A stretch of DNA of 64,000 nucleotides from an uncultured Thermoleophilia bacterium (GTDB lineage: Bacteria > Actinomycetota > Thermoleophilia > Gaiellales > Gaiellaceae). Of this stretch, positions 8,321 through 62,317 are shown piece after piece. The stretch lies in NCBI GenBank assembly GCA_963806025.1, contig CAWDWI010000013.1, positions 100,478 to 164,477 of the forward strand, read 5' to 3'. The position numbers were made by a program, and so were the translations under genes. The notes beneath the pieces are model-generated. The model was given only the letters and a program-made list of their open reading frames with translations, was not told the DNA's origin and made no database searches. Positions within the stretch are counted from its first letter, which is position 1. Every line of letters begins with the position of its first letter.

Positions 8321-9702
8321 CCAGCTTTCCGGACGCCGCCCGGGTCGAACTGGCCAACGTCCAGCTGCGGACGAACCTCCGAAACGCGACGGACACGATC
8401 CGAGCGAAACGCGCCAGGGTCGTGGCGGAACTGCCCGACTGGGAGGAGCTTCGCGAAGCGGGGAAGGCGATCAAGACCGAGGTGCTCGCGAAGCTCCCCG
8501 AGTACCTGCTCCAGTTCGAAGCGGCGGTCCAGGCTGCGGGCGGTCACGTCCACTGGGCGCGTGACGCGGCCGAGGCGAACAGCATCGTTGCCGAGGTCGC
8601 TCGCGCACACGGCGTCGATGAGGTGGTCAAGGTCAAGTCGCTCACGACCGACGAGATCGGGCTCAACGAGGCGCTCGAGGCAGAAGGAATCCACGCGATC
8701 GAGACGGACTTCGCCGAGCTGATCCTTCAGCTCGACGGAGACTGGTCTTCGCACATCCTGGTGCCGGCGATCCACCGCAACCGCACCGAGATCCGCGACC
8801 TCTTCGCACGGACGATCGCTCCCGGCATCGGCTCCGACGAGCCGAGCGACCTGGCCGAGGCGGCGCGGCTCTATTTGCGCGAGCGGTTCCTGGCTGCACG
8901 TGTCGGGGTCAGCGGCGCGAACTTCGGCATCGCCGAGACCGGCACCGTCTGCGTCGTCGAATCCGAAGGTAACGGTCGGATGTGCACCACCTTGCCACCT
9001 GTCCTCATCACGGTGCTCGGGATCGAGAAGCTTCTGCCCCGCTTCTCCGACCTGGAGGTGTTCCTTCAACTGCTTCCGCGCTCCTCCACCGGCGAGCGAA
9101 TGAACCCGTACACGTCGCTGTGGACCGGCGTGACCGCCGACGACGGCCCCCAGGAGTTCCACGTCGTGCTGCTCGACAACGGCCGCACCCGCGTGCTGCG
9201 CGACGATGTCGGCAAGGAGGCGCTGCATTGCATCCGCTGCAGCGCCTGCCTGAACGTCTGCCCGGTCTACTCCCGCACCGGCGGCCACGCGTACGGCTCG
9301 GTCTACCCGGGCCCGATCGGTGCGATCCTCGTGCCGCAGTTGATCGGGATCGAGAACGCTGCAACACTCCCCTTCGCATCCAGCCTCTGTGGCGCCTGCT
9401 ACGAGGTCTGCCCGGTCAAGATCGACATCCCAAAAGTGCTCCTGCACCTGCGGGCAAAAGCAGTCGAAGCAAAAGGCAACTCACCCGAACGAGCTCTGAT
9501 GCGCTCGCTCGCCTGGGTCTTCGCCGGCCCTCGCCGACTCGCCGCCGCCCAGCGACTCGGCCGCCTCGGCCAGCGGCCCTTCGTCCACCAAGGCTCGATC
9601 CACCGCCTCCCCGGACCGCTCGCCCGCTGGACCCGCACACGCGACCTCCAACCGCTCCCCCGCGAGAGCTTCCGCTCCTGGTGGCAGCGGGAGCGCAAGT
9701 GA
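8317..9702 (+). CDS. lutB: L-lactate utilization protein LutB (4Fe-4S ferredoxin-type iron-sulfur protein)
   Basis: GTG at 8317 overlaps the lutA TGA. Two ferredoxin clusters are present (CIRCSACLNVCP, CGACYEVCP), plus the DUF162/LUD region (GANFGIAETGTVCVVESEGN). Confidence 0.85.
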   Translation: MTSFPDAARVELANVQLRTNLRNATDTIRAKRARVVAELPDWEELREAGKAIKTEVLAKLPEYLLQFEAAVQAAGGHVHWARDAAEANSIVAEVARAHGVDEVVKVKSLTTDEIGLNEALEAEGIHAIETDFAELILQLDGDWSSHILVPAIHRNRTEIRDLFARTIAPGIGSDEPSDLAEAARLYLRERFLAARVGVSGANFGIAETGTVCVVESEGNGRMCTTLPPVLITVLGIEKLLPRFSDLEVFLQLLPRSSTGERMNPYTSLWTGVTADDGPQEFHVVLLDNGRTRVLRDDVGKEALHCIRCSACLNVCPVYSRTGGHAYGSVYPGPIGAILVPQLIGIENAATLPFASSLCGACYEVCPVKIDIPKVLLHLRAKAVEAKGNSPERALMRSLAWVFAGPRRLAAAQRLGRLGQRPFVHQGSIHRLPGPLARWTRTRDLQPLPRESFRSWWQRERK

Positions 9703-9747
9703 GCCAAGCCCGGAAACAGATCCTGGAACGGATCGCCGCAGCGAGCG

Positions 9748-10338
9748 GTGCGCACGCCGCCGAGCGATCAGTTGCGCACGGCCTACCGGCGCTCCGGCAC
9801 GCTCACTGCTGATGAGCGGATCGAGCTTTTCCGCCAACGAGTTGGCGAATACCGCGCGGAGGTGCGAAGCGTCTCCGCGCCCGAGTTGGCGATGCTGATC
9901 ACCACGGTCTGCGCGGACAGGGGTGCGACGAGGCTGGTCGTTCCCGACGGAATCCCTTCTTGGTGGCACCCGGGCGGCGTCGAGCTCGTGGCCGATCACG
10001 GGCTGTCGGCGCGTCAGCTCGACATGGTCGACGGCGCGCTCACCGGGTGCACCGTCGCGATCGCGGAGACGGGGACGATCGTCCTCGCTGCCGGCGAAAC
10101 CGAGGGCCGCCGCGCGCTCTCACTCGTCCCCGACCTTCACATCTGCGTGGTCTACGAACAACAGATCGTGGAACTTCTGCCGGAAGCACTGGCCCGGCTT
10201 GCCCACGATGGGCTCGAGCAGCGTCCGCTCACCTTCATCTCCGGCCCGTCGGCCACATCGGACATCGAACTGAGCCGTGTCGAGGGCGTGCACGGTCCCC
10301 GGGATCTCGTCGTCCTCGTCGTGAAGGAGTCGTCATGA
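9748..10338 (+). CDS. lutC: L-lactate utilization protein LutC (LUD domain); the N-terminus is probably displaced into another frame (see finding)
   Basis: GCTVAIAETGTIVL, LSLVPDLHICVV and ISGPSATSDIELSRVEGVHGP are LutC/YkgG-like. An LutC-like N-terminus (VSQARKQILERIAAA) starts at GTG 9699 in a different frame. ATGA overlap with rhaM. Confidence 0.75.
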   Translation: MRTPPSDQLRTAYRRSGTLTADERIELFRQRVGEYRAEVRSVSAPELAMLITTVCADRGATRLVVPDGIPSWWHPGGVELVADHGLSARQLDMVDGALTGCTVAIAETGTIVLAAGETEGRRALSLVPDLHICVVYEQQIVELLPEALARLAHDGLEQRPLTFISGPSATSDIELSRVEGVHGPRDLVVLVVKESS

Positions 10339-10646
10339 CCCAGCGCACCGCGTTCGTTCTCAGCGTCCGGCCCGAGAAGATCGAGCAGTACATCCAGGCC
10401 CACAAGGAAGTGTGGCCCGAGATGCTCCAAGCGCTCCAGGACGCGGGAATCCGCAACTACACGATCTTCCGGCACGGCACCGAGATGTTCGGCTATTTCG
10501 AGGCGGACGATCTCGACGCCGCGGCGAACCACCTCGCGCGGCAAGAGGTCTCGACGCGCTGGCAGGACGCCATGGCGGAGCTCCTCGACCAGCGTGTCCC
10601 GGACGGAGGACCGCCGGCGCTCGAGGAGGTGTTCCGGCTCGATTGA
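10335..10646 (+). CDS. rhaM: L-rhamnose mutarotase
   Basis: 103 aa: MTQRTAFVLSVRPEKIEQYIQAHKEVWPEMLQALQDAGIRNYTIF...GYFE. This matches the RhaM/YiiL pattern and length. Confidence 0.85.
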   Translation: MTQRTAFVLSVRPEKIEQYIQAHKEVWPEMLQALQDAGIRNYTIFRHGTEMFGYFEADDLDAAANHLARQEVSTRWQDAMAELLDQRVPDGGPPALEEVFRLD

Positions 10647-10747
10647 GAGCGGAAGCCGCCCCTCGCAGGGGTCGGCCGACGGCAGGCGAACGAGTCCACA
10701 CAGCTTCCCCTCAGGGAAGTCCCCGTTCGGCCGATAGAGAGAGAACA

Positions 10748-11383
10748 ATGTTGAAAGTCGTCATCGCGGATGATCACCGCCTGATCCTGGCCGGGATCAA
10801 ACGCGCCCTGGAGGACGACGGCGAGTTCGAGGTGGTCGGCGAGGCGAGCACGGGCGAGAAGGTCCTTCCGCTCGTCGCGCAGACGAGCCCCGACCTGGTC
10901 GTGCTCGACCTGCGCATGCCCGGGATGGACGGCCTCATCTGCCTCGACCAGATCAAGAAGCGCCATCCTTCGATCAAGGTGGTCGTGCTGTCGGTCTCGA
11001 CCGACGAGAAGCTGATCGAGAACGTCCTCAAACGCGGCGCGAGCGCCTACATCGTGAAGAGCGTCAACCCGGTCGATCTGCCGGGAGCTCTACGCCAGGC
11101 CGTCGAGGGGAACGTCTTCAGCACCATCGGGCTCCCCGACGCGACGACCGCCGGCGCAGCGAAGGCGGCCGGGCTCACCGACCGCGAGGCCGTCATCCTC
11201 GGAGCGCTCGCGCGAGGTCTCTCCAACGAGCAGATCGCGAAGGAGCTCTGGGTCGCGGAGCAGACGGTGAAGTTCCACCTGACGAACGTCTACCGCAAGC
11301 TCGGAGTCTCCAACCGGACCGAGGCCGCCCGCTACGCCTACCAACAGGGCCTCGTCGACAGCCCGCTCTACGAGCACGAATAG
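10748..11383 (+). CDS. Two-component response regulator, NarL/FixJ (LuxR HTH) family
   Basis: Receiver domain (VVIADDH, DLVVLDLRMPGMDG, VVVLS) plus a LuxR HTH (LTDREAVILGALARGLSNEQIAKELWVAEQTVKFHLTNVYRKLGV). ATG at 10748 follows a purine-rich stretch (agagagagaac). No cognate kinase is adjacent. Confidence 0.85.
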   Translation: MLKVVIADDHRLILAGIKRALEDDGEFEVVGEASTGEKVLPLVAQTSPDLVVLDLRMPGMDGLICLDQIKKRHPSIKVVVLSVSTDEKLIENVLKRGASAYIVKSVNPVDLPGALRQAVEGNVFSTIGLPDATTAGAAKAAGLTDREAVILGALARGLSNEQIAKELWVAEQTVKFHLTNVYRKLGVSNRTEAARYAYQQGLVDSPLYEHE

Positions 11384-11400
11384 CGCGCTCGGCGCCCCCG

Positions 11401-11598
11401 CTACAGAAGCTCGACGCGAACCAGGCGGCCCTGCGCACGCTGAGCCGCTTCCCAGGCTCGAACCCGGAGATAGATCGCCATCCGCATCGCCTCGAGGTTG
11501 TACGACCCGAGCAGGGACACCTCGATCGTGTCGTCGCCGGCGGCAGCCACGACGAGATCGGTCCGTGACTGGAGATCGGCGATCAGGACGTCTCTCAT
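11401..11598 (-). CDS. Small hypothetical protein (about 65 aa)
   Basis: MRDVLIADLQSRTDLVVAAAGDDTIEVSLLGSYNLEAMRMAIYLRVRAWEAAQ... looks protein-like. The start was chosen 8 nt after the stop of the upstream small ORF. The track ORF extends to 11712. Confidence 0.35.
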   Translation of the reverse strand: MRDVLIADLQSRTDLVVAAAGDDTIEVSLLGSYNLEAMRMAIYLRVRAWEAAQRAQGRLVRVELL

Positions 11599-11605
11599 CC
11601 CCGGG

Positions 11606-11863
11606 TCACTCAGCCGGAGAGTCGTCACGGTCCCCTTCACCGACGCGAGTGCGCTTGCCGAACTGGAGGCGCGCGCAGGTCGGGCAGTAGAACGCGAGCG
11701 CCGGAGACTCATCGGTTCCCGGTTCGTCGATCCGGTAGGCGCGCCATCCGTGCCAGCAGAGGCCGCTCGAGGCTTCGCACTCGACGCATTGGACGGTCGT
11801 GGCCTTGTGATTGTGACGATCCCGGCTGCTCGCGTTCACTTGTCTCCCTCCCTGTTCCGTCAC
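11606..11863 (-). CDS. Small zinc-ribbon-like hypothetical protein
   Basis: Two CxxC pairs: QCVECEASSGLCWHGWRAYRIDEPGTDESPALAFYCPTCARLQF. No recognised family. Confidence 0.4.
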   Translation of the reverse strand: MTEQGGRQVNASSRDRHNHKATTVQCVECEASSGLCWHGWRAYRIDEPGTDESPALAFYCPTCARLQFGKRTRVGEGDRDDSPAE

Positions 11864-11941
11864 CTTGAAACGGCGAGCAGGTTCGAGCCACCTACGTTCG
11901 AGTTGACTCGTTGCGACCTACGGCGTGCCCCGAACGAGGGA

Positions 11942-12211
11942 TTACGCCGCGCGTGCGTCGCGCCGGGGGACCGCGAGGATTCCCGCCAGCTCGGCGAGGT
12001 GCGAATCGCCGGCTGCCAACCGCTGGAGCTCGCGGGCCTCGCTTCGCCTCAGAGCGACGACGCGTGTGCTGTTGAGCGCCCAGTCGAGCACGAGCGCGAG
12101 ATCGCGAAGTCTCGATGAGCCCCCTGCTTCGGCGTGCGCGAGCCTCTGCGCACGTTCGACCTGTGCGCGGGGAACTACGACGAGCTGACCTCGAATCTCA
12201 AGCCTGACCAT
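11942..12211 (-). CDS. Small hypothetical protein (89 aa)
   Basis: The ORF overlaps the upstream small ORF by 14 nt, suggesting translational coupling. No motif recognised. Confidence 0.3.
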   Translation of the reverse strand: MVRLEIRGQLVVVPRAQVERAQRLAHAEAGGSSRLRDLALVLDWALNSTRVVALRRSEARELQRLAAGDSHLAELAGILAVPRRDARAA

Positions 12212-12389
12212 TGCCGCGCGAAGGACTGTACGTCGGGCGCCGGACGACCCTACCGCCGGTCACCGTCCTCACGTCCACGCGCGCCGTGACCGCCTGCTCC
12301 GGGCGAGCCGGAGGCTCGTGCTGGATGCAGAACTCGCCCATCGTCAGCACTCTGCAGCCCTGCCGGCTGCACTGGTGAACCAGTGACAT
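12198..12389 (-). CDS. Small Cys/His-containing hypothetical protein
   Basis: MSLVHQCSRQGCRVLTMGEFCIQHEPP has C-x4-C-x8-C-x2-H spacing. ATG at 12389 was chosen over the track start at 12422. Confidence 0.35.
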   Translation of the reverse strand: MSLVHQCSRQGCRVLTMGEFCIQHEPPARPEQAVTARVDVRTVTGGRVVRRPTYSPSRGNGQA

Positions 12390-12623
12390 CTCGAGGCCCT
12401 CCCAGCCGCTTCCTGCGAGCATCTCACGGCGGCGAGGCGGATGGATGCGCGCGGGCGCCGAAAAATACGCAATTTGCGGGTCGCTGCTCGTGCCGCTCCG
12501 ACCGGCACGTGCTCCGTCTCAGCCCGAAAGAGGGATACTCGTCAGGCGGCGCGCGGCTGCGGACTGTGCGGCAACTATCCCCTTCCGCGCGCCGCAGCTA
12601 CCTTCGCCGTGACGGCCCGTCCA

Positions 12624-12629
12624 CATAAT
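12624..12629 (+). promoter_or_regulatory. Candidate -10 hexamer CATAAT placed for a leaderless transcript of the DUF6328 gene
   Basis: cataat ends 6 nt before the ATG at 12636 and there is no Shine-Dalgarno sequence. Leaderless mRNAs with this geometry are common in Actinobacteria. Confidence 0.25.
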
Positions 12630-12635
12630 CCCGGC

Positions 12636-13085
12636 ATGGTCGAAACCGACCGAGACCGCCTCAACCGGGAACTGCTGGAACTGCTGAATGAGCTGCGCGT
12701 CGCGCTTCCCGGCGTGCAGGTGCTCGTCGCGTTTCTCCTGGCTATCCCGTTTGCCCGGGGGTTCGCAACGACGACGAGGTTCGAGCGCAATCTCTACTTC
12801 GGCGCTCTTGCATCGGCGCTCATCGCAACCGTTCTGTTGATGGCGCCGAGCGCATATCACCGCGTGCTCTTTCGCCACCACGACAAGGAACTGCTGATCC
12901 GGCACGCAAATCGGCTCGCGATTGCCGGAATCTTCTCACTCGGCGTCTCGCTCACCATCAATCTGTACTTCGTCTGCCGGTACGTGTTCGGCGGCGGCCC
13001 CGCGGCGATCGCGACCTTGGCGTTCATCGCGCTGATCGCGTTGCTCTGGTTCGGCCTGCCGGTCTGGATCCGTCTCCGAGAGTAG
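12636..13085 (+). CDS. DUF6328-family membrane protein
   Basis: DRLNRELLELLNELRVALPGVQVLVAFLLAIPF..RF, followed by further TM helices. This matches my recollection of the DUF6328 N-terminal signature. Confidence 0.6.
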   Translation: MVETDRDRLNRELLELLNELRVALPGVQVLVAFLLAIPFARGFATTTRFERNLYFGALASALIATVLLMAPSAYHRVLFRHHDKELLIRHANRLAIAGIFSLGVSLTINLYFVCRYVFGGGPAAIATLAFIALIALLWFGLPVWIRLRE

Positions 13086-13101
13086 GCCCGCCGCGAACGG
13101 C

Positions 13102-15312
13102 TCAGCGATGCGTGGTCCGGACGGTGCGCCGAGGCAGCTCGACCACCTTCGGCTGCAGAGCGGGAAGCGCACCGAGGATGAATGCCTCGACGAGCTCGGG
13201 GTCGAACTGAGTCCCAGCCGACGCGCGCAGCTCTTCGATCGCGCGATCGCTGCTTCGCGCAGTCCGGTACGGGCGCTCGGAGGTGATGGCGTCGTACGCG
13301 TCGCAGATCGCGATCATCCGTGCGGCAAGCGGGATCTCCTTGCCCCGGAGGCCGTCGGGATACCCGGTGCCGTCCCATCGCTCGTGCGTCGAACGGACCG
13401 TGAGCGCAACATGCTCGAGACCCTCGGCGGCGGCGATGATCCGCTCGCCGATCAGCGTGTGCTGCTGAACGATCTTCCATTCCTCTTCATCGAGTTGCCC
13501 CGGCTTCTGCAGGATCGTCTCCGGCAGCGCGAGCTTGCCGACGTCGTGGAGCTCCGCTGCCGCACGGACGAGCTTGGCGTCGCTCCCGACGAGCCCGAGC
13601 TCCATGGCCAGCGCGGCCGAGTACCTGGCGACGCCGTTCGTGTGCGCACCAAGCGACTCGTCCCGCTCGACGAGCGCCTGGAGCAGGACGCCGCGACCCT
13701 CTCCTCCGCCGACGCCGAGACCTTTCTCGGTGTACATCCGCCGGTCGGCGACCTGCAGTGCGTCATGCGTGTTCTCGGCCTCCCCTGGAAGCAGCGTGTG
13801 GCCGCTCGAGCAACTGATGGCAAATGCCTCGCCTGACTCGCGCAGGCTTGCCGTCGCCGCCGCACGAACCCAGGGCAGGTTGACACTCGATCCCTTCACA
13901 AAGATGCAGAACTCGTCGCCGCCGAGTCGAAAGACCTCGCCCCGCGAGCCGACCGAGTCGCGGAGCCGTGCGCCGAGCCGCTGCAGCAGCGCATCGCCCG
14001 CACCGTGGCCGAACGTGTCGTTGTAGGCCTTGAAGCCGTCGAGATCGAAGAGGAGCAGGAGCGACGGTTCATCGCCGGTCGTCGCGAAGTACTCGTCGAG
14101 GCGGCGGACGAGCGCGCGGCGGTTCCCGAGACCCGTCAGGGCGTCGCTGAGCGATTCGACACGCGTCAGCTGAAGCAGCACCAGGTACTCCTTGAACGTG
14201 AACATGAGACGCCCGATGACGGCGACGAGGCCGAGCGAAGCCGCGATCAGCGCAACCGTCTGCACCCGATGAAAGTGGTCCCAGAACTCGATCCCGAGGC
14301 AGACCAGCGCCATCGCGACCGGGGCGAGGACGATCGCCATCCCATCGAGCCGGCCGCGCTGTCGCCAGGCCGGGGCCACGAGCGATCCGGCGGCGATCAG
14401 AACGAACCCGGCGGGCCAGCCGAGGTCGAGCCAGCCGCCGTACTCGTAGGTCCCGTGCGCGACCTCGACCAGATAGACGGAGTCGGCCACCGCGAACAGG
14501 ACGAGACCGCTGCCCACTACGAGCCACATCCGGTTCAGCTTCCAGCCCGACAGCCCGAACGCACAGAAAACCAGGGAGAGGAGCAGGGCGTCTCCGGCCG
14601 GGTAGGCGAGGTTGGTCGCGATGGCTGCGAAGCTGCCGGTCGACGTCCGCCACACGGGGCCAAGCACGAGACCCGTGGCGAGCGCGCAAACGGTGAATCC
14701 GGCGATCAGACCGTCCACCCAGACGAAGCCGCGGAAATCGACGACGGACGAACGGACGAGGAGCCCGAGGCCGACGAAGACCGGGACGTAGAAGCCGAGG
14801 TAGCCGAGATCGGCGAACGACGGGAAGGGCTGCGAGGCGAGGTCCTGCAGCGCGACCGTGTAGTAGATGTCTCCGAACGTCCACGCGAAGATTCCGGCCG
14901 CGATCCAGATCCAGGCAGCTCCACCGCCCCCGCGCAGGCCCCGCACCAGACACGTCGCGCCGGCGAGCAGGCCGACGGCGTCATAGACGTAGTTCGTGAA
15001 GATCGAGGACACTTCGGCGTCACCAAAACCGGTGCGCAACTGGACGGCGAGCGCAACGAAGGTTGCGGTCGCTGCGGCCAGGCCGAAGACGCACAGCCGC
15101 CTCGCCCAGAGGGAGTCGGCCTCGGCCTCGTTCGTTGCGAGCCGGGCAACCGAATACGCAGTCACAGCCTCGGTTTCGGCACCGTTCGCCGTGGAACGGC
15201 TCCCCCGGATGGGGTAACCCAGCCGTTGGCCGGCGGTGTCGTTCGGGAGTGCTGGTGCGCAACCGGGCGAGAGCGAGAAAGGGGCCCCGCCGCATCGGGC
15301 CTTGGCTCTCAC
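13102..15312 (-). CDS. Membrane-bound diguanylate cyclase (GGDEF) fused to an HD-GYP phosphodiesterase domain
   Basis: Multi-TM N-terminus. GGDEF domain: GLGNRRAL, LFDLDGFKAYNDTFGHGAGD, RLGGDEFCIF. HD-GYP domain: AAELHDVGKLALP, HHERWDGTGYPDGL, ICDAYDAITSERPYR. The true start may be GTG at 15165, because the first 49 aa look non-protein-like. Confidence 0.85.
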   Translation of the reverse strand: MRAKARCGGAPFSLSPGCAPALPNDTAGQRLGYPIRGSRSTANGAETEAVTAYSVARLATNEAEADSLWARRLCVFGLAAATATFVALAVQLRTGFGDAEVSSIFTNYVYDAVGLLAGATCLVRGLRGGGGAAWIWIAAGIFAWTFGDIYYTVALQDLASQPFPSFADLGYLGFYVPVFVGLGLLVRSSVVDFRGFVWVDGLIAGFTVCALATGLVLGPVWRTSTGSFAAIATNLAYPAGDALLLSLVFCAFGLSGWKLNRMWLVVGSGLVLFAVADSVYLVEVAHGTYEYGGWLDLGWPAGFVLIAAGSLVAPAWRQRGRLDGMAIVLAPVAMALVCLGIEFWDHFHRVQTVALIAASLGLVAVIGRLMFTFKEYLVLLQLTRVESLSDALTGLGNRRALVRRLDEYFATTGDEPSLLLLFDLDGFKAYNDTFGHGAGDALLQRLGARLRDSVGSRGEVFRLGGDEFCIFVKGSSVNLPWVRAAATASLRESGEAFAISCSSGHTLLPGEAENTHDALQVADRRMYTEKGLGVGGGEGRGVLLQALVERDESLGAHTNGVARYSAALAMELGLVGSDAKLVRAAAELHDVGKLALPETILQKPGQLDEEEWKIVQQHTLIGERIIAAAEGLEHVALTVRSTHERWDGTGYPDGLRGKEIPLAARMIAICDAYDAITSERPYRTARSSDRAIEELRASAGTQFDPELVEAFILGALPALQPKVVELPRRTVRTTHR

Positions 15313-20666: not shown

Positions 20667-20702
20667 GTTTTTCTTCCTTCCTGGCACAACGTTGTCCGAC
20701 CG

Positions 20703-21023: not shown

Positions 21024-21067
21024 TTTGCTTGCAAACTCACGTTCTTCCTGGTTATCTGGGGGAAGGG

Positions 21068-46067: not shown

Positions 46068-46456
46068 CAGTCCCTGCGAGCACGCGGAAACCGGTCTTCG
46101 ATGTTGATAACAGCCCTGCGCTCCGCACGCGGTCTCCCCGGGGCGTATCAGGGCAAAAATTCACCGAGCCGGTGGCGTTTTCGTCCACCGCCCCCACAAA
46201 CCTTCGGCTTGCGCCTATGGCCCTCAGGAACGGCTTCGGTCTACTAACGCTCCGCGCTCGGTGCATTCAGCAACGTAGCGATGGCGCGGAGCACGTTCAA
46301 GACCGGAGTTTGTAAACGAACCCGCAGTTTGCGGCAATTCACTCGCGGGTGCCGCCGGCGAGCGAGGGCGGCATCCCTCGACCGAGGGAGGCCTTTCGTT
46401 GCGGGTCGCACGGCGGGCTTCTAGACTCGCGCGAATCCGACGAGAAGGAGGCCGAG

Positions 46457-49596: not shown

Positions 49597-50893
49597 TCAC
49601 CTGACCCGCACCTGGAGGCTGAGCCGGCGCTGGCGCGGCGACCAGATCCGGAGCAGCGAGCCGCGCTGGAGGCGAATCGTCCTGATGAAGACGCCCTGAT
49701 TGTTCGTCAGCCGGGCACGGCCGACGAGTTTCCATTCGTTCCGGTGGAGCACCTCCAGCTGATAGGGCTTGCGGCCCGGCCGGCCGCCGCGAATCTGACC
49801 CCAGACCACTGTCTGGAACCCGACTCGCCTCATCTCCGCGAACGGCAGCTTGAATCCCTGCAGCGAGGGCTTCGGACGGCTGTTCGCGAAGAGGAGCCCG
49901 GTCTGGAAGCGGCTGAGCGCGACCTCGTCGCGATAGAGGTACTGGATCAGCATCGTGACCCGCGGCAGCCGCCAGGCGCGCATCGCCGCGAGGCTGAGCA
50001 TCGTCGCCTGCCTCCGGGGCGGAACGCCGAGGAACATGTCGGGCGGGTTCGTCTGGTAGCCGTACTCGGTGAGCCAGATCGGCTTCGGCCCGAAGGCGCG
50101 CCTGACGAGGATGAGGAGCTTCGGAAGCGTCGCCATCGTGATCGACGGACAGTTCTTGCAGCCGCCGCTCGACGGCGTCTCGCCTGGTCTCGAGGGGTAG
50201 GGGTGGTGGGCGTAGGCGTCGAGCTTCGCGTGTGCGGCGGCCATGCCGCGAACCCAGACCACGGGCGCAACGCCCCCGAGCCCGCCGCGAGGCGCCGTCA
50301 CTCCGCCGCCGACCTGCGCGTGCCGGAGGACGGCGTGGATCGCGTCGTACCCGGGGTTGAGCAGATGCTGGACGTAGATCGCCGCCTTCGTCGGTCTGAG
50401 CCAGAGCGGCTTGTTCGGCTCATTCCAGATCAGCCAGTAGTGAACCCAGGGGTAGCGCTGGGCGGCGGCGTGCGCGAAGGCCCGGAAGTCCCGCGGTCGC
50501 GGAGGCGCGAAGTTCGGTCCACGGCCCCCGTTCGCCCAGGCCGGCGTGCCGACCAGCGTGAGCACCGGCGTCAGGCCGTAGCGGCGGAGGCCGCGCAGAA
50601 TCCTGTCGGGTCGACGCCAGTCGTAGGCGCGATCGCGCGGCGAGCTCGGATTCGGTCGGCCGCCGCAGGGCGATCTCGTTCCAGCGGAGCGTGAAGCGGA
50701 CGAGCGGCACGCCGAGCCTCTTGAACGTCGCCAGCCGCTGGTTGAGCGTTCCCGGCCCGAACTCCAGCCACGCGTCGTCCTGAATCCCGTACCGAATGCC
50801 CTTCGACGCGTGAACGGAGCTCGCAGCAACACATGCCGCGACGGCGAACAACAGCACCACGCACATTCTCATCCGACCCCCTGGCGTCCTCAT
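49597..50893 (-). pseudogene. Secreted glycoside-hydrolase-like (clan GH-A) protein, paralog of 15621-17123; frame broken once near 50652
   Basis: The signal peptide and first strands (MRTPGGRMRMCVVLLFAVAACVAASSVHA...VRFTLRWNEIALRRP) are in the frame of ORF 50420..50986. The rest (NPSSPRDRAYDW...WLIWNEPNKP...IWLTEYGYQ) is in the frame of ORF 49597..50832. Confidence 0.65.
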
Positions 50894-50997: not shown

Positions 50998-51274
50998 TTG
51001 AGCACGCTCATCCGCTTCGCTCCCCCGTCCTTGACGGCCGAGCAGTACGACAACGCTGTACGTCGACTGCGCGAGGAAGGCGTCCTCCCGGCCGACGGGC
51101 TCGAGTTCGAGATCTGCTTCGGGTCGGGCGACCAACATCGCGTCAGTCAGGTCTGGGACTCGCCCGAGCAGATGGCCGCGTTCGGCGAGCGCCTCGCGAC
51201 CGATCCTCGCCGAGCTGGGCATCGACCCCGGCGAGCCGGAGGTCGTCGAGGTGCACAACATCATCAGGCGCTGA
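50998..51274 (+). pseudogene. Small conserved-looking hypothetical protein (about 91 aa) split by one frame jump near 51199
   Basis: TTG 50998 lies 6 nt after GGAGG. (M)STLIRFAPPSLTAEQYDNAVRRLREEGVLPADGLEFEICFGSGDQHRVSQVWDSPEQMAAFGERLA continues sensibly only in the next frame: PILAELGIDPGEPEVVEVHNIIRR*. Confidence 0.45.
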
Positions 51275-52353: not shown

Positions 52354-53087
52354 GTGCTCCGGGCACGGCCCGGCGGCCCGGCCGAACGGCTCGCTGCGAG
52401 CCTCAGCGCGAATGCCGCGATCGTCTTCACGATCGCGATGCTCGCCGGGCTCCTCGTGATCGCGGCCGCTTCGATCGGAGCCGGCCTCCTCGTGACGAGG
52501 GTGATCGAGCGCGCATGGGGCATCGGCGCGGCCGACGAGCGGGTCAACGTCTGGCTCGCAGCGCATCGCACACCGGGTCGGACGCACGCGTCGCTGATCG
52601 GCTCGATCGTCGCGGGTGGCGTGGTGCTGCCGATCCTGGTCGGGCGTGATCGGGCTGGCCTGCGCGGTCCTGCGGAAATGGCGGGTTGCGGCTTTCGTCG
52701 TCTTCGCACTCGCCGTCGAAGCGGCGACCTACCGGCTCACGACGCTGGTCGTCCACGTTCATCGGCCGCGCGTCGTCCGACTCGAGCAGCTGCCGGTCAA
52801 CGCCAGCTATCCGTCCGGGCATACCGCTGCGGCGGTCGCGGTCTACGGCGGGCTCGCGCTCCTCGTCACCTCCAGGTTCCAGAGCAGGCGCGGTCCGCGC
52901 GCTCACGTGGGCGTTCGCAGTCGCGATGGTCGTGTTCGTCGCACTGTCGCGCATGTACCGCGGTATGCACCATCCGCTCGACGTGGGCGGCGGGCTGCTC
53001 GTGGGCATTGCAGCACTGGCCGTGCTCGTGTTCGCATGCCGTCTCGCGGGCGCCGTCTACGACGCGCACCACGGCGGAGAAGCATGA
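52354..53087 (+). pseudogene. Second PAP2-family membrane phosphatase, distributed over three frames (jumps near 52645 and 52888)
   Basis: Frame 1: ..AIVFTIAMLAGLLVIAAASIGAGLL..GGVVLPILVG. Frame 2: VIGLACAVLRKWRVAAFVV..VVHVHRPRV..YPSGHTAAAVAVYGG. Frame 0: AVRALTWAFAVAMVVFVALSRMYRGMHHPLDVGGG. All three PAP2 motifs are present once the frames are joined. The start is uncertain. Confidence 0.65.
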
Positions 53088-54019
53088 AGGTTGCAGTCGT
53101 CGCGCACTCGGGCAAGACGCTCGGCGGTGGACTGCCGGAGCTCCGTCGCATCCTCGAGGCCGAGGGCGTGACCGACCCGTTCTGGTGTGAGGTCGCGAAG
53201 AGCCGCAAGGCGCCGGCGCAGATTCGGCGCGCCGTCGCGGAAGGGGCGCAGCTCGTCTTGGTGTGGGGCGGGGACGGAATGGTCCAGCGGGCCGTCGATG
53301 TGCTCGCCGGTTCGGATGTGCACCTGGCAATCGTCCCGGCGGGAACCGCAAACCTGTTCGCGTCCAGCCTCGGCATCACGAAGCACATCGGCCAGGCAGT
53401 GTCCATCGGCCTGCGCGGCGCCGACCGCAAGCTCGACGTCGGACGGTTCAACGGCGAGCGCTTTGCGGTGATGGCGGGCGCAGGCTTCGACGCAGCGATG
53501 ATCCGCGATGCCGGCACCGGGGGGCTGAAGGAGCGGCTCGGTCGCGCCGCGTACGTCTGGACGGGCTCGAAGAACCTGCGCTCGAAGCCGTTTCGGGCCA
53601 AGATCGAGGTCGACGGTGTCCGCTGGTACAAGGGGAAGGCCAGCTGCATCCTGCTCGGGAACACGGGCGAGCTGTTCGGCGGAGTCAGTGCGTTCGAGGA
53701 TGCGCGACCCGACGACGGCAAGCTGGAGCTGGGTGTCGTCACGGCCGAGGGGCTGGTGGAATGGGGCCGGATCATCGCCCGTGCCGCGGTCGGCACCGCG
53801 AGCAAGTCGCCGTTCGCACGGACCACGAAAGCGCGCTCAGTGAAGGTCGAGCTGAACCGGAAGATCCTGTACGAGCTCGATGGGGGCGACCGCTCGAAGG
53901 TGAAGTCGTTCAAGGTCAAGGTCGAGCCGGCCGCCATCACCGTGCGCGTCCCCCGCGACGACTCGCCGTTCGCCCACGGTGACGTGAAGCCCGTCTATCC
54001 AGAGAGGATCAAGCTATGA
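53084..54019 (+). CDS. Diacylglycerol kinase catalytic-domain lipid kinase (YegS/BmrU-like)
   Basis: MKVAVVAHSGKT.., LVLVWGGDGMVQRAV, LAIVPAGTANLFA, FAVMAGAGFDA. ATGA overlaps at both ends. Confidence 0.85.
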   Translation: MKVAVVAHSGKTLGGGLPELRRILEAEGVTDPFWCEVAKSRKAPAQIRRAVAEGAQLVLVWGGDGMVQRAVDVLAGSDVHLAIVPAGTANLFASSLGITKHIGQAVSIGLRGADRKLDVGRFNGERFAVMAGAGFDAAMIRDAGTGGLKERLGRAAYVWTGSKNLRSKPFRAKIEVDGVRWYKGKASCILLGNTGELFGGVSAFEDARPDDGKLELGVVTAEGLVEWGRIIARAAVGTASKSPFARTTKARSVKVELNRKILYELDGGDRSKVKSFKVKVEPAAITVRVPRDDSPFAHGDVKPVYPERIKL

Positions 54020-54853
54020 GCAACATACGATCGACCGGAGCGGTCGGCGCCGTGGAGGACGCGGGCGCCGGCTTCGTCCAGACGCCTGCGTTCGAGTGGC
54101 TCTCGCGTGCCGGGTTCGTCGCGCGTGGAGCCGTCTACGCGATCATCGGGATCCTCGCGTTCAAGCTCGCTATCGGGCATGGCGGCAAGCTGACGAACCA
54201 GCAGGGAGCCATGCGCACGTTGGCGCACCAGCCGTTCGGCAAGTACCTGCTCACGTTGCTCGCGATCGGTCTCGCGGGTTACGCGATGTGGCGGTTGTTC
54301 CGCGCTGCGCTCGGGCGTGGGCCCGAGGGCGCCGATCAAGGCTTCGACCGGCTCGCTGCGCTCGGAAGCGGCCTCGCCTACGGCGCGCTGTGCGTCCTCG
54401 CGGTCGAGATCCTCCTCGGGGCCGGCTCCTCGGGCAGCGCATCGCCCAAGAAGTCGGCGGCCGGGGTCCTCGGCTGGCCGGCGGGCGCCTGGATCGTCGG
54501 GCTCGTCGGGGCCGGCCTGGTCGGGATCGCCCTCTACCAGGGGTACCGTGGCGTGTCGCAGGCAGTTTCTCGACGACTCGAAGGTCGAGGAGATGCCGCC
54601 CGCTGTGAAGACGTGGATCGGCCGGCTCGGGACGGTCGGGCATCTGGCGCGCATGGTCGTGTTCGGCCTCGTCGGGATCTTCCTCATCAAGGCTGCCGTC
54701 GATTTCAATCCGAACAAGGCAGTCGGCCTCGACGGCGCACTGGCCAAGCTCGTGCACGCCGCCTACGGCCCGTACCTGCTCGGAGTGGTCGCTGTCGGCT
54801 TGATCGCGTTCGCGCTCTTTTCGTTCAGCGACGCGCGCTATCGAAGGATTTGA
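54016..54853 (+). pseudogene. DUF1206 domain-containing membrane protein, frame broken once near 54559
   Basis: N-terminal repeats WLSRAGFVARGAVYAIIGILAF..GKYLLTLLAIGLAGYAMWRL lie in the frame of ORF 54016. The C-terminal repeat RLGTVGHLARMVVFGLVGIFLIKAA..GPYLLGVVAVGLIAFALFSFSDARYRRI* lies in the frame of ORF 54317..54853. Confidence 0.7.
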
Positions 54854-54855
54854 CA

Positions 54856-56322
54856 GTGGCCGCCCGGCTCGATCCGTTCAGGCGAATGACCTATCCGCTC
54901 GAGTGTTGGGTGGGTGAACAGATCTCCGAGCAGATCTGCCGTCACCACCGGAGGCGACTCGAGCGGATCGGATGGTCACACGCGCTCGAGCCCGAGCCGG
55001 GCAAGTGGGCCACGGGCGAGTTTCCGGCTCGGCCCGGCAACAGCGTGGAGATTCTGATCGACGGCGCGCAAGCACTGCCGTCGATGGTTGACGCGCTGCT
55101 CGGTGCGGAATCGCACGTTCACATCACCGGCTGGTACTTCACCCCGTCGTTCGCGCTCGAGCGCGGCAGCAGCGAACCGCTCGTTCTCCGGAATCTCCTC
55201 GCCGAGCTGGCAGAGCGGCTCGACGTACGCGTGCTTGCCTGGGCCGGGGCGCCGCTTCCCCTCTTCCGCCCCTCGCGGGGAGACGTCTCGACGATGCGCG
55301 ACCGGTTGACCATGCACACGAAGATTCAGTGCGCGCTCGATGCGAAAGAGCGGCCGATGCATTGCCACCACGAGAAGACGATCATCATCGACGACCGCGT
55401 CGCGTTCGTCGGCGGAATCGACCTCACCTCGGAGTCGGGCGACCGGTTCGACACGAACGACCATCCGTCCCGCTCCGAGGTCGGCTGGCACGACAGCTGT
55501 GCGCGGATCGAAGGCCCCGCCGTCGATGATGTTGCGGAGCATTTCCGCATGCGCTGGCATGAGGTCACCGGTGAGCAGCTCGCCCCCGCAACGCCGTCGG
55601 AGTCGGCGGGCGACGTCGAGCTCCAGGTCGTGCGCACCGTGCCCGAGCGCATTTACGACGCGAAGCCGAAAGGCGAGTTCACCATTCTCGAGTCGTACGT
55701 GCGCGCGCTCGAATCCGCGCAGCGCTTCATCTACATCGAGAACCAGTTTCTCTGGTCGCCCGAGATCGAAGGCGTGCTGTACCGGAAGATCCTTGATCCG
55801 CCCCACCCCGACTTCCGCCTCGTGCTGCTGCTGCCGTCGAAACCGAACAGCGGCGCCGACAACACGCGCGGCGTGCTCGGTCATCTGATCTCCGCCGATG
55901 GAGACGCCGGACATGTGCTGGCCTGCACGCTCTTCGCGCGCGCCGGCGATCTCGCAGACCCCATCTACGTCCACTCCAAGATCGCGATCGTCGACGACGA
56001 GTGGCTCACGATCGGTTCCGCCAATCTGAACGAGCATTCGTTGTTCAACGACACCGAGCTGAACATCGTGAGCCGAGACCCGGAGCTCGCCCGACGGCTC
56101 CGCCTCCGTCTTTGGGCGGAGCACCTCGAGCTGTCCGAGAAGCAGATACCGAGTGATCCCGTCGAGGCAATCGACGAGGTGTGGAAGCCCGTCAGCAAGG
56201 AGCAGCTCGAACGCCGAACGGCGGGCCGTCCACTGACACACCGTCTCGTGCGGCTCCCGCACGTCTCACGACGCTCTGCCCGCGCGCTTGGTCCGGTCTC
56301 GGGCCTCCTCGTCGACGGCTGA
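54856..56322 (+). CDS. Phospholipase D / cardiolipin-synthase-like protein (two HKD motifs)
   Basis: HCHHEKTIIIDDRVAFVGGIDL and YVHSKIAIVDDEWLTIGSANLN. GTG 54856 lies 2 nt after the DUF1206 TGA. The track shows it fused in frame to the upstream ORF (54016..56322). Confidence 0.85.
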   Translation: MAARLDPFRRMTYPLECWVGEQISEQICRHHRRRLERIGWSHALEPEPGKWATGEFPARPGNSVEILIDGAQALPSMVDALLGAESHVHITGWYFTPSFALERGSSEPLVLRNLLAELAERLDVRVLAWAGAPLPLFRPSRGDVSTMRDRLTMHTKIQCALDAKERPMHCHHEKTIIIDDRVAFVGGIDLTSESGDRFDTNDHPSRSEVGWHDSCARIEGPAVDDVAEHFRMRWHEVTGEQLAPATPSESAGDVELQVVRTVPERIYDAKPKGEFTILESYVRALESAQRFIYIENQFLWSPEIEGVLYRKILDPPHPDFRLVLLLPSKPNSGADNTRGVLGHLISADGDAGHVLACTLFARAGDLADPIYVHSKIAIVDDEWLTIGSANLNEHSLFNDTELNIVSRDPELARRLRLRLWAEHLELSEKQIPSDPVEAIDEVWKPVSKEQLERRTAGRPLTHRLVRLPHVSRRSARALGPVSGLLVDG

Positions 56323-57559: not shown

Positions 57560-58622
57560 GTGGACGAGGAAACGTGGACCACCGCCGCGACCGCGCGACA
57601 TGCATTCGTCGCGACGATCGTGGCTCTCGTCGTGATCGTGGTCGCGTTCGCCCTGTGGCAGCTCAAGGTCGTCCTTGCGCTGATCCTCCTCGGCTTCACG
57701 ATCGCAGCGGCGATGCGTCCCGGCATCGATCGTCTCGCCTCGTGGCGGATCCCGCGCCCGGTCGGCTTGCTGCTCCACTACCTCGGGCTGCTCGCGGTGA
57801 TCGGGCTGTTCCTGTCGTTCGTCGTGCCGACACTCACCGACCAGGTTCAGGCGGCGCTGCACGCTGCGCAGACTCACCATCCTGGTTCCGGCGTTGGCAT
57901 CAAGGCCAGGGTGCTCGACGTGCTCTCGCGCCGGTTGCACAGTCTTCCCGCCGCCGACAAGCTCGTCCAGCCCGCCCTGTCGGCCGGCGAGCAGGCGCTC
58001 AAGGTGCTGATCGGCATCCTCTTCACGTTCACGGTCGCCGCCTACTGGATCTTCGAGCGCGAGCGCACCGTCGACCTGGTTGCGAGTTTTCTGCCCAGGC
58101 CACGGCGCAAGACTCTCCGGGACACGTGGACGCTGATCGACCAGAAGCTGGGCGCGTTCGTGCGAGGCGAGCTCGTGCTTGATCGCGTTCGTCTCGACGC
58201 TCGCGTCGATCGCGCTCTGGCTCGTCGGCGAGCCGTACTGGTTGCTGATCGGAATCGCGGTGGGGATCCTCGAGATCGTTCCGGTGGTCGGGCCGCTCGC
58301 GGCACTCGTTCTGGCCGTCGGTGCCGGGTTGACCGTGTCGTGGCACACGGCGGTGCTCGCGGGCGCGGCACTGCTCGTGATTCGGTTGACCGAGGACTAC
58401 CTCGTCACCCCGCGCGTGCTCGGAGGTGCAGTCGGCCTCTCCCCGCTCCTGACCCTGATCGCGGTGTCGGTGACAGGGGTCCTGCTCGGCGGCTTCTACG
58501 TGCTGCTGTCGGTGCCGATCGCAGCGGTCGTCGCGACCGTCGTCGATGTGTCACTCCGCGGAGTCGACCCGGCCGAGGTCGAGGTGCCGACCGTCATCTT
58601 CCCGTCCCAGGACGCCGGCTGA
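57560..58622 (+). pseudogene. AI-2E family transporter (PerM/UPF0118), frame broken once near 58181
   Basis: The N-terminal TM part, up to KLGAFVRGELVL, is in the frame of ORF 57560. The continuation IAFVSTLASIALWLVGEPYWLLIGIAVGILEIVPVVGP..LTEDYLVTPRVLG is in the frame of ORF 58179..58622. Confidence 0.75.
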
Positions 58623-59353: not shown

Positions 59354-60757
59354 CTACTTCCAGCGGCGACCTGCTCCGGCGATGTACTGGCCGTAGCCGC
59401 GCAGTGCGGCTGCCGAGGTCAGTACCTGGTAGGCGAAGAGATAGCCGAGGAAGCCTCGCTTGTCGTGCTTGGGGTGGATGTCGAGCGTGCGGAACACATG
59501 GCGTGCCTGCCACCGCTGCAGGAACCCGAAGATGGCGAGTGTGATCGGGAGCAGGAGCATCGACCACCAGCCGAAGATCAATGGGTAGCCGAAGAGGAAG
59601 AGGATGACTCCAGGGACCCAGAAGAAGATGACCCCGATGTCGAGGCAGGGGACGAGGTAGTCGATCCCGGCGACCAGCTTCGCCAGGACGCGGGGCTGTA
59701 TCGCGGGTGGATGCGTCCGGAGGCCCTCGAACATGCCGCGTGCCCAGCGCGAGCGCTGGCTCAGGAGGATGCTCAACCGGTCGGGGACGACCGTAAAGCC
59801 GAGCGCGACCGGCTCATACTGGACGAGCCCGCGTGCCGCCAGCATTGACCAGGTGAGCACGATGTCTTCGCCGATCGCATCGGGCCAGCCGCCGACGGCG
59901 CGAAGGTCACTCGTGCAGTAGGCCGAGAACGCGCCCTGGGCGACAAGCGCGGTGTTGTACGCCGCCTGCATGCGCTTCACACCGTTGATCCCCAGTCGGT
60001 AGTCCCACTGCTGCATCCGGGTGACGAACGTCGCCTGCGGGTTCTCGGCGACGAGGGCGCCCGCACACGCACAGACGTGCTGGCCCTGCGGCCTGCGCGA
60101 CACGCGAACGACGAGTCGCGTGAGCGCCTGCTGCTGCAGGAGGGTGTCGGCATCGACCGTTACCACCAGCGCTGTCGTCACGGTCTCGAGGGCGGCGTTC
60201 AGGGCGTGGTGCTTGCCCTGTCTCTCCTCGAAGACGCGTCGGTACGGGAAAGGGAGGCGAGCGCCCGCTGCGTCCGCCAGCATGGCGGTGTCGTCGGTGG
60301 AGTTGTTGTCCGCAACGACGACTTCAAGACGACCGGGGTACGAAAGGTCGCCGATATGTTCGAGTGTCCGCACGATCGCGGCACTCTCGTTCCACGCCGC
60401 CACCAGGATCGTCACCGAGGGCCACTCGCCTGCGGCCCAATCACCCTTGGGAGGGTCGAGCGGTAGCTCCTCATAGCGTGTGATCAGGAGCGTGAAGATC
60501 ATGAACCAGATGACCAGACCGGGGATGTAGGCGAGGAAGATCGGGATCACCCAGGCCATCACCGGGCCGATCGCCTCCTCCAGCTCGCCTCGCCAGGTCG
60601 CGGAGACCCAGACGCTGAACCCGACCCAGGCGAGAGTCAGGATGAGTGCGATCGCGAAGCGGACCGTCGGTCGAAGGCCGGACGCCGGAGCCTTCCGCCG
60701 AGTCAGACCGCCGAATGCTCGGGGCGTTGGACCAGCGGATCCGACTGACGACGACAT
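59354..60757 (-). CDS. Processive family-2 glycosyltransferase (PgaC/NodC/cellulose-synthase-like polysaccharide synthase), membrane-integrated
   Basis: ATG 60757 lies 4 nt after GAGGAG. N-terminal TM helices, then VADNNSTDDT, VTVDADT (DxD), GEDIVLT and QRSRWARG (Q-x-x-R-W, the hallmark of processive beta-glycosyltransferases), then C-terminal TM helices. In the track it is fused to the upstream regulator as one 682-aa ORF. Confidence 0.8.
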   Translation of the reverse strand: MSSSVGSAGPTPRAFGGLTRRKAPASGLRPTVRFAIALILTLAWVGFSVWVSATWRGELEEAIGPVMAWVIPIFLAYIPGLVIWFMIFTLLITRYEELPLDPPKGDWAAGEWPSVTILVAAWNESAAIVRTLEHIGDLSYPGRLEVVVADNNSTDDTAMLADAAGARLPFPYRRVFEERQGKHHALNAALETVTTALVVTVDADTLLQQQALTRLVVRVSRRPQGQHVCACAGALVAENPQATFVTRMQQWDYRLGINGVKRMQAAYNTALVAQGAFSAYCTSDLRAVGGWPDAIGEDIVLTWSMLAARGLVQYEPVALGFTVVPDRLSILLSQRSRWARGMFEGLRTHPPAIQPRVLAKLVAGIDYLVPCLDIGVIFFWVPGVILFLFGYPLIFGWWSMLLLPITLAIFGFLQRWQARHVFRTLDIHPKHDKRGFLGYLFAYQVLTSAAALRGYGQYIAGAGRRWK

Positions 60758-60780
60758 GACTCTCCTCGGGCAGGCAGCAC

Positions 60781-61402
60781 TTAAAGATCGGCGCCTCGTC
60801 GGGATACGAGCCGGGCCGTGACGGGCGGCGGCGACGGCTTCGAGGCGCGTCCTCACCCCGAGGGCGCGCAGCAGATGGCGGACGTGGTTCCGGACCGTTT
60901 CCGTGCTCAGGTGGAGCTCCTGCGCGATCTGCTTCGTCGAGCGACCCCGCTCGAGCAGACCCAGCACCTCGGCCTGCCTCGGCGTCAGGTGCGCGGGCGG
61001 TGGGCTCGCCGCGTCGTCGAGCGGACCGGTCAGCAGCCCGAAGACGCCGACCACACGCTCTCCGCCGATCAGGGGCACGGCGCTCACCTCCAGCGCGAGG
61101 CGGGTTCCGTCGGTCGAGACGAAGACGGCGTTTGTCTCGGTCGCCGCGGTCGTGCCGAGCACCTTGCGCGCGAAGAGCTCGCGCGCCCTCGCCCGGTCTT
61201 CCGGGCCGACAACCGACGTGAAGTGCCGACCGCGAACGTCGCCGAGGAGGCGCTCGGCCGCCGGGTTGATCCACCGGACGACCCCGGCCGTGTCGAGCAC
61301 GTAACTCGGGACGAGTAACCCGGTGAGGGCACGCTCGACGTCGCCGCCTACCGTCAGCCCGCCAGCCGTTGCTGCCATTCCCACAGTGTGGTCGATCGAC
61401 AA
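60781..61402 (-). CDS. PAS-like sensor + LuxR-type HTH transcriptional regulator; the natural stop is unclear (in-frame read-through into the GT2 gene)
   Basis: PAS-like VVRWINPAAERLLGD..HFTSVVGPED. LuxR HTH LTPRQAEVLGLLERGRSTKQIAQELHLSTETVRNHVRHLLRALGV. A TAA at 60781-60783 is reached only after a +1 jump downstream of ..EAVAAARHG. Confidence 0.65.
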
Positions 61403-61484
61403 CGGTCTGTCACGGGTCGCCGAAAACGCGGAGCTCCGGACACCCGCGCATCAAAGCGCGGGCATCCGGAGCCGGCTCGAGCCG

Positions 61485-62113
61485 CTAGGTGGCGCTCACG
61501 CAGATGACGTACAACGTCATGTCTGCGAGGTTCACCTTGTCGTTGACCTGCACGATCCAGCCGGAATTGTCGTTCGGCTTGACCGTTGTCGTGCTCCAGT
61601 CCATGCGACCAGGGAACGACGCGATCACGCCACTTCCGTCCGAGAGGGCCTGCGAGTTGAACCCGCTGTCCCCCGCCGACGTGAACCGGTAGCCGCCACC
61701 CAGCGCGACCTTGCCGGGGGAGCAGGCGACCGTAGCGATGGCGCCGCCGCCCACACCGACGTACCCCGGGACCCATGTCCGAGTTGGCGTCGTCCTTCGA
61801 GTACCGCCAGGTGCGAACCTCGTACCCACTTGCGCCGGCGCGGCCTTGCCGGCCCGGAGCGCCGGCTGCACCAGCAGGCCCCTGCGCCCCACGAGCGCCG
61901 GTTGCCCGCAGGCCCCTGCGGACCGGCCGCGCTGGTCCCTCTGTTCTGGCTCTGCAGCGCGTTGCGCGCGGCGGGCGAGAGATCGGCGAGCGAGACTGCG
62001 CCGTCCTTGATCTGGCTGGACGACGTGATCAGGTAGTGATGGGCGGCGAATGCGCCCGAGGTGATCGCGAGCATTGCGACGAGCACCCCGACTAGGGTGA
62101 TTCCTTTTTTCAA
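61485..62113 (-). pseudogene. Membrane-anchored collagen-like (Gly-X-Y) repeat protein with a C-terminal beta-rich domain, spread over three frames
   Basis: TTG 62113 gives (M)KKGITLVGVLVAMLAITSGAFA..GPQGPAG in frame a. GARGAQGPAGAAGAPGRQGRAGASGYEVRTWRYSKDDANSDMGP is in frame a+1. GYVGVGGGAIATVACSPGKVALGGGYRFTSAGD...MTLYVICVSAT* is in frame a+2. Confidence 0.6.
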
Positions 62114-62317
62114 GTTGATTCCTCTCTTGACCCCGGCCGTCACGGTGCGATGAGGCGGGAGCAGTGTTCGGCCTGGGATCTTCACGCTGCTCTCTCGCAA
62201 AGATCACGGTAGCCCGTACCTGTCGGAACGACCATGACACGATGGGGTAGGCCTGGGGCTCTGGCGAAGTGAGCCGGGATGCTTGTTCGTCGTTCGATGA
62301 GCCCGTAGTCTCTGCCG

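Follow-up and report, generated by a model that had tools for sequence, protein, structure and literature searches.

Long-read assemblies are known to contain insertions and deletions (indels) that fragment genes (PMC12007338, Kastor; PMC6487183, long-read viral metagenomics). Here we analyse a 64,000-nucleotide stretch of bacterial DNA, hereafter the window (G000:C13:100478-164477; coordinates given without a contig are window positions), in which the genes for LutC, a PAP2 phosphatase, an AI-2E family transporter and several other proteins are interrupted by changes of reading frame. From our comparison of the sequence with its relatives, it is highly probable that these frame breaks arose as consensus errors in the deposited long-read metagenome assembly and are not features of the organism. 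As in the assemblies described earlier (PMC12007338, PMC6487183), single-base consensus indels split or fuse conserved genes, are found through intact orthologues, and scale with assembly type; unlike those, the breaks in the genome that holds the window, G000, are insertions in a ratio of about 4:1, show no homopolymer enrichment, and are located at strain single-nucleotide polymorphisms (SNPs) with both alleles kept. A related case is the Nanopore-only catalogue of soil metagenome-assembled genomes (MAGs) known as Microflora Danica, built with Flye and one round of Medaka, in which Gaiella-type genera were expanded more than 10-fold and whose authors inspected low-coverage MAGs for Nanopore-associated errors (PMC12313526). 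The likeness is in the few-contig MAGs of soil Actinomycetota; however, that work associates a drop in coding density with low GC and long homopolymers (PMC12313526), whereas G000 has 68% GC and no homopolymer enrichment at its breaks. That G000 belongs to a data set of this type is a guess on our part.

Programmed +1 frameshifting in prfB is conserved across species, takes place in a slippery/stop context with an upstream Shine-Dalgarno-like element, and is found once per genome. As in prfB, one extra base must be skipped in G000 to obtain the full protein, but G000 has about 200 such sites, unconserved and with no shared context. Decaying genomes, of which Mycobacterium leprae is the standard example, carry mixed lesions (nonsense mutations, deletions, insertions) under relaxed selection, with breaks common to close relatives. 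G000 resembles them in having many disrupted genes, yet neither the mixed lesion spectrum, nor the relaxed selection, nor the shared breaks were seen.

G000 comprises 3.04 Mb in 14 contigs, with 68% GC and 93.8% completeness; on the indirect basis of that contig number for that size, it looks like a long-read-only MAG of an uncultured Gaiellaceae-like actinobacterium, and the named homologues of the window's proteins come from Gaiellaceae MAGs. The window was compared with congeners, among them G009 (8 contigs, 91% identity, collinear with window 1887-59321), and with further contigs: L094, a Joint Genome Institute (JGI) short-read contig with 98.3% identity over 2,149 nucleotides (nt); L095 (ENA contig_29289), a Flye-style contig of 148 kb with 96% identity over about 10 kb; and L087, a JGI contig 99.3% identical over LuxR. 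Since the window has long open reading frames (ORFs) in all six frames at 68% GC, frames were judged by comparison with orthologues and by a coding-frame model, not by the length of ORFs. A comparison of stop-free spans was dropped as a frame test for the same reason. Indels relative to G009 were located by MAFFT alignment. Intact orthologous ORFs were searched against the window with tblastn, abutting high-scoring segment pairs (HSPs) in consecutive frames being taken as a frame break; distant congeners, whose non-coding frames no longer align, were used too, and for the AI-2E protein and the collagen-like C-terminus translations read through the breaks served as queries. Frame switches were called from the phase of third-position GC content and by a codon-usage Viterbi frame caller trained on G000. 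Eight switches were placed in the window (23184, 37887, 50634, 51201, 52641, 52881, 54561 and 58176), five of them within about 6 nt of an indel, two at lesions without an exact assignment, and one off by 17 nt. The breaks are as follows.

9770-9785, plus strand: LutC N-terminus; one extra base relative to G009 at 9782, frame +1.
23178-23186, plus strand: giant secreted protein; an A present in G009 at 23180 is missing from the window.
37876-37895, plus strand: MFS-cNMP transporter; +1-phase break at 37889 in the central loop, in a GCGCGCGC run.
45370-45376, plus strand: C-terminal tail of the cyclase-STAND-TPR protein; one extra base relative to G009 at 45372.
50650-50657, minus strand: GH-like protein; one extra base at 50651, absent from G009, G017, G006 and L095.
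51196-51200, plus strand: small protein; one extra base at 51198.
52641-52646, plus strand: PAP2 phosphatase, first break; extra base at 52642, absent from L094, L095, G009, G003 and G005.
52886-52892, plus strand: PAP2 phosphatase, second break; extra base at 52887, absent from L094, L095, G009 and G003.
53968-53973, plus strand: C-terminal tail of the diacylglycerol/lipid kinase (DAGK); extra base at 53969 relative to L094, L095 and G009.
54560-54565, plus strand: DUF1206 protein; one extra base at 54563.
58176-58179, plus strand: AI-2E family transporter; one extra base at 58178.
60795-60813, minus strand: junction of the LuxR tail and the GT2 start; deletion of about 55 nt removing the LuxR stop.
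61768-61772, minus strand: collagen-like protein, second break; one extra base at 61771 relative to six congeners (placed at 61767 in the preliminary description).
61898-61910, minus strand: collagen-like protein, first break; +1 phase at 61905, the window being 2 nt shorter than G009.

A preliminary description of this DNA had listed thirteen positions, and twelve of them proved to be genuine frame changes, 0-17 nt from where it had put them; the thirteenth, at 60790, is not. The breaks that it gave at 9765, 45380, 50652, 51199, 52645, 52888, 54559, 58181 and 23185 were observed at 9782, 45372, 50651, 51198, 52642, 52887, 54563, 58178 and 23180, respectively. Ten of the listed breaks are of a single base, nine being extra bases and one a missing base, and the DAGK tail at 53969 is a further break outside that list. 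While the description spoke of at least 12 affected genes, its list holds 11, of which ten are confirmed. It was right that nearly all cases are of the +1 type, in that extra bases prevail in the window and, at about 4:1, genome-wide, and also that the case near 23185 is the only one of the opposite sign, one base being missing there relative to G009. Compared with L095 or G009, the window also has one base more at each of 51304, 51315, 56323, 57118 and 57553, in intergenic DNA or at gene ends where no frame is broken; these may be real differences or additional errors of this type.

The comparison with orthologues, which the preliminary description had proposed, showed the genes to be intact and single-frame in as many as six congeners and in independent metagenome contigs, at 91-98% DNA identity. 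All comparable window breaks are missing from G009 (91%), from an ENA short-read contig and JGI contigs (95-98%), and from the Flye-style ENA contig (96%); L082 and L087, at 95-96%, likewise have none of the breaks that they span. In particular, L095 is without all seven window breaks that it spans, and exactly three indels separate L094 from the window, namely both PAP2 breaks and the DAGK break. The AI-2E transporter is a clear example: HSPs cover residues 1-211 and 211-357, the Pfam AI-2E_transport model is matched at 4-200 and 203-325 of 327 on the two sides of the break, and in a DNA alignment of seven sequences position 58178 is the gene's only column with a base in the window and gaps in all six relatives. 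Read through the break, the protein gives gap-free alignments with 12 intact homologues (90-99% identity).

The PAP2 gene needs two such repairs. Its HSPs (1-257, 260-338 and 341-404) lie in three frames, and the Pfam PAP2 match runs over 4-75 before the second break and 79-122 after it, of 130; the gene is single-frame in G003, G005, G008 and G018, and is called intact on L094, with 243 amino acids (aa). For DAGK, homologues at 96-99% identity are 300 aa long and cover 95% of the 311-aa reading in the window. The GH-like gene, single-frame in G006 and G017, gives HSPs over 3-97 and 97-447 in frames -1 and -2 that abut at 50651/2, and the small protein gives HSPs over 1-151 and 152-175. The DUF1206 gene is single-frame in G003, G008 and G018, while in the window its HSPs pass from frame 1 to frame 2, abutting at 54561, with DUF1206 repeats on either side of the break. 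Coding potential leaves the old frame at 54561 and follows the next one to a stop at 54853; it returns to the old frame at about 54979, where PLDc begins as a separate gene. The 768-aa ORF at 54016-56322 is the old DUF1206 frame running on into the PLD gene, and because of the break at 54563 we regard this DUF1206-PLD ORF as an artefact, as the preliminary description had suggested. In public gene calls this exact 768-aa fused ORF has no record. L095 has an annotated DUF1206-PLD fusion of the same length, 768 aa (L095 5432-7738), caused by a different extra base, opposite window 54797. A second DUF1206 break was considered at 54434, where the window differs from G009 by 2 nt, and rejected: frame calling and three other congeners find the window intact there, G009 being the odd one.

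Similar evidence holds for the breaks between 9 and 46 kb. A single frame suffices for LutC in G009, G003 and G005, but in the window VSQARKQILERIAAA.. and ..YRRSGTLTADERIELF.. stand in successive frames, with the switch after ..AAERSVAHG; the piece downstream matches LUD_dom over 80-189 of 189. In the giant protein, the break connects ORFs 20255-23206 and 23263-28536, with a switch of the coding frame at 23184/5, where that of G009 is continuous. The 824-aa cyclase ORF of G009 aligns over 6-805 in frame 2 and over 800-824 in frame 3. For the MFS-cNMP transporter, tblastn puts residues 1-215 of a 567-aa ORF of G009 in frame 1 and residues 215-567 in frame 2, with MFS_1 3-168 before the break and MFS_1 together with cNMP_binding after it.

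The nature of the extra bases is informative. At six of about nine testable sites the extra base and the base beside it equal the two alleles found there in close relatives, and most of these sites are third codon positions. With the two bases concerned in brackets where they can be singled out, the window reads GT[G][C]TTG at 58178, where GTC occurs in three relatives and GTG in the rest; GC[G][A]CCG at 51198, where L095 has GCG-CCG and G009 GC-ACCG; GA[A][T] on the gene strand at 50651, where L095 has GAA and both G009 and G017 have GAT; GG[G][C] at 52642, where L094 has GGG and G003 GGC; and TTCG at 53969, where L094 has TTC and L095 and G009 have TCG. At 61771 congeners have G or A, and the window has both. 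By a rough estimate, a randomly inserted base would match such an allele pair by chance at well under one site in ten. We take the match at six sites to be a signature of a consensus that would have concatenated the alleles of two strains.

The breaks are not confined to the window. A frame detector run on all of G000 gave 242 candidates, 177 extra-base and 65 missing-base, on 13 of the 14 contigs, and a strict criterion left a ratio of 156:37 at 6.4 per 100 kb; we thus put the number of breaks in G000 at about 190-240. The candidates are clustered (variance/mean of 5.5 in 20-kb bins), with patches at C2 500-650 kb, C10 0-40 kb, C12 0-60 kb and C13 20-60 and 140-180 kb. The patch on contig C10 holds the dcw cluster, where murE (TIGR01085 2-83 and the rest) and murC (TIGR01082 2-34 and the rest) are each split by +1 and are the only copies of these genes in G000; SerA and the tail of SecDF are also split. 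The densest error patch observed lies in a UbiB/ABC1-kinase-like gene (G000 C10:12080-14302), with about 8 frame changes in 2.2 kb. A candidate at the FtsW/MurG boundary (C10:33531) was set aside as a probable false positive, FtsW matching its model over 4-353 of 357. The ClpB gene (G000 C8:136762-139212) shows a split of +1 type at about C8:138600. Among the same-frame stop interruptions that we read (from the first 40 of 44) there were no nonsense lesions, these being ordinary stop-start junctions. At the same 40 places same-frame neighbours are very often joined as ..TAGATG.., and TAG seems unusually common at stop-start junctions for a genome of 68% GC.

Related assemblies carry breaks of their own according to how they are assembled. 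In 492 kb of other few-contig MAGs there were 25 strict candidates, or 5.1 per 100 kb (G009 11, G017 5, G006 5, G003 2 and G026 2; 22 of the 25 with an extra base), as against 2 in 539 kb, or 0.37 per 100 kb, in the fragmented congeners (G014 0, G005 1 and G018 1). The difference is about 14-fold with p ~1e-6 in a conditional test, a value to be read in the light of few related genomes, clustered events, and contig number as a proxy for technology. G009, whose 11 candidates fall in 92 kb and include 9 extra bases, is broken where the window is intact, at 9039, 10970, 11195, 11306 and 22668-23018. Its own extra bases lie opposite window 9039-15245, 21024-23018 and 45509-46111, three of them opposite 10412-11383 and several in the N-terminal part of the giant protein, in addition to the 2 nt at 54434. 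L095 likewise has extra bases of its own in other places, with five within 83 nt of the 5' end of PAP2 and another at 54797.

How could such errors arise? If two co-occurring strains differ at a SNP or a small haplotype, a consensus or polishing step might retain both alleles in tandem, which would add one base and shift the frame by +1; occasionally the outcome would be a lost base, or a short chimeric stretch whose length is not a multiple of three. The error patches would then probably be stretches of lower depth or of higher strain heterogeneity, and gene callers would go on to output truncated or fused products such as the 768-aa DUF1206-PLD ORF. Which platform was used for sequencing, that the strains occurred together in the source sample, and how polishing produced the errors are all things that we infer.

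Very recent real pseudogenisation, in a decaying or mutator lineage with some 200 frameshifts mostly in accessory genes, would agree with the occurrence of breaks in patches, with the intactness of most large housekeeping genes, and with the mostly accessory character of the window's broken genes (transporters, PAP2, DUF1206, the collagen-like protein). We nonetheless consider it very unlikely. Single-copy murC and murE are broken, extra bases are in excess by about 4:1, and nonsense lesions are missing from the stop interruptions read. Downstream of breaks, substitutions relative to G009 fall at third codon positions of the shifted frame in 68% of cases, compared with 74% in other coding DNA and a neutral expectation of 33%, so the downstream frames still bear the mark of selection. 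Moreover, L094, at 98.3% identity, lacks all three breaks that it spans; genes with two or three breaks (PAP2, the collagen-like gene, a G009 gene at 10.4-11.4 kb) are otherwise undamaged; like lesions occur at other sites in unrelated few-contig MAGs and are rare in fragmented ones; and mutation does not predict that the inserted base should be the alternative SNP allele. The preliminary description had favoured insertion-type errors of a long-read assembly over gene decay, and the absence of the breaks elsewhere, the damage to essential genes and the purifying selection that is kept lead us to the same preference.

The coincidence of break sites with strain-polymorphic positions does suggest that the heterogeneity at these positions is real, and one might suppose that the extra bases themselves are real minor or co-dominant alleles of a mixed population, picked by the consensus. 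This would require about 200 alleles of the same insertion type, including some in essential genes, whereas no relative or independent contig compared has any of the extra bases, and we judge it more improbable still than pseudogenisation. Programmed +1 frameshifting or four-base decoding, by which the genes would be expressed intact, would account for the nearly uniform direction of the breaks, and for the fact that essential murC and murE are affected although the organism evidently lives. However, the sites have no common context (GTG[C]TTG, GC[G]ACC, GA[A]TCC) and none stands in a CGG_N/glycine context or precedes a stop; the best words at breaks (GGCC, GGCCC and CCGGGC) are enriched only 1.6-2.4-fold, which is of borderline significance once multiple testing is corrected for; conservation of the sites is lacking, relatives at 91-98% identity reading straight through; and -1 and multi-base cases exist too. 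There is thus next to no likelihood in frameshifting of this kind, and it would be just as hard to believe that the extra bases are real and that +1 recoding is tolerated or decoded at about 200 sites, murC and murE included. A methylation-type motif was also considered and discarded, GATC not being among the enriched words.

Some of our results weigh against consensus errors as the source of the breaks. Homopolymers are not enriched at breaks in G000, runs of at least 4 being found at 5.8% of sites against 8.5% in the background, and the enrichment toward contig ends is weak (57% versus 47% within 60 kb, with no excess within 20 kb); two of the classic signs of error are thus absent. The claim of the preliminary description that several breaks sit in or beside short G/C runs is not supported as an enrichment at homopolymers, only GGCC-type words being weakly enriched. 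Most of the large housekeeping genes checked (rpoB, rpoC, gyrA/B, fusA, infB, ftsH, lon, topA, uvrA, dnaK, groEL, recA and atpD) are intact, which is also what selection against real frameshifts would lead one to expect. The comparison of few-contig with fragmented MAGs covers eight related genomes, and the fragmented ones may be without the break-rich variable regions. The breaks at 37889, 61905 and 60790 are not simple one-base lesions. Finally, the errors are inferred from comparison of sequences.

The lesions that depart from the simple pattern deserve a closer look. The break at 37889 falls in a variable loop of the MFS transporter, where the window has 5 nt fewer than G009; the frame break is real, but it is not a one-base lesion. 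In the collagen-like protein, passing from GPQGPAG to ..GARGAQGPAG at 61905 needs a change of frame, and the Gly-X-Y periodicity indicates that two codon bases are missing; the number of Gly-X-Y repeats varies widely among congeners, and this again is not a simple one-base lesion. A read-through of the region around the second break, at 61771, matches 9 congeners in one frame and G000 in two pieces. In the comparison of window 61485-62240 with G009 and L088-L093, the N-terminus and Gly-X-Y region of the collagen-like protein are common to G009, the C-terminal globular domain being unrelated to that of G009 and 80-88% identical in at least 9 other congeners. In another assembly, G094 (3 contigs), the collagen-like gene is split by a frame change of its own, at a different position.

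The preliminary description had read the break near 60790, in PAS-LuxR, as a single-base slip, but it is a deletion of about 55 nt by comparison with G009 and L087, homology to both of which ends at about 60809-60814. The deleted nucleotides hold, in both relatives, the LuxR tail ..ARHG[PR]A..APA[GS] (that is, ..ARHG plus 8 aa) and its stop, and it is because the deletion took this orthologous tail and stop that LuxR reads on into GT2; the LuxR-GT2 fusion is therefore due to the deletion and not, as had been proposed, to a single-base slip. The GT2 gene retains its own ribosome-binding site and ATG. A +1 repair of the LuxR tail, giving ..RLVSRRGADL and a stop, was rejected, since orthologous tails end in ..HG[PR]A[SF][HQ]APA[GS] and a stop and the window has lost about 55 nt there. 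The in-frame LuxR-GT2 read-through could be a real structural variant. The GT2 synthase gene adjoining PAS-LuxR (window 59356-61418) is a movable piece: L087, which is 95-99% identical on both sides, has LuxR directly after a MarR/small-gene block and is without the GT2 gene, and in G009 the GT2-LuxR pair lies at another location, inverted.

An extra base that is the SNP allele of another strain is a simple diagnostic that works without reads, and the allele-merge signature could be applied to similar MAGs. G000 serves as a species representative and yet carries roughly 200 frame breaks, and its gene calls include truncated, fused and missing proteins, among them the 768-aa DUF1206-PLD protein and the split murC, murE, serA, PAP2, AI-2E and MFS-cNMP genes. 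The sister few-contig MAGs G009, G017 and G006 and the ENA contig L095 present the same annotation problem. For the biology of this organism, the frame breaks almost certainly represent nothing new and matter for the quality of its annotation, and claims about domain architecture or pseudogenes drawn from the window need to be checked beforehand against the list of breaks.

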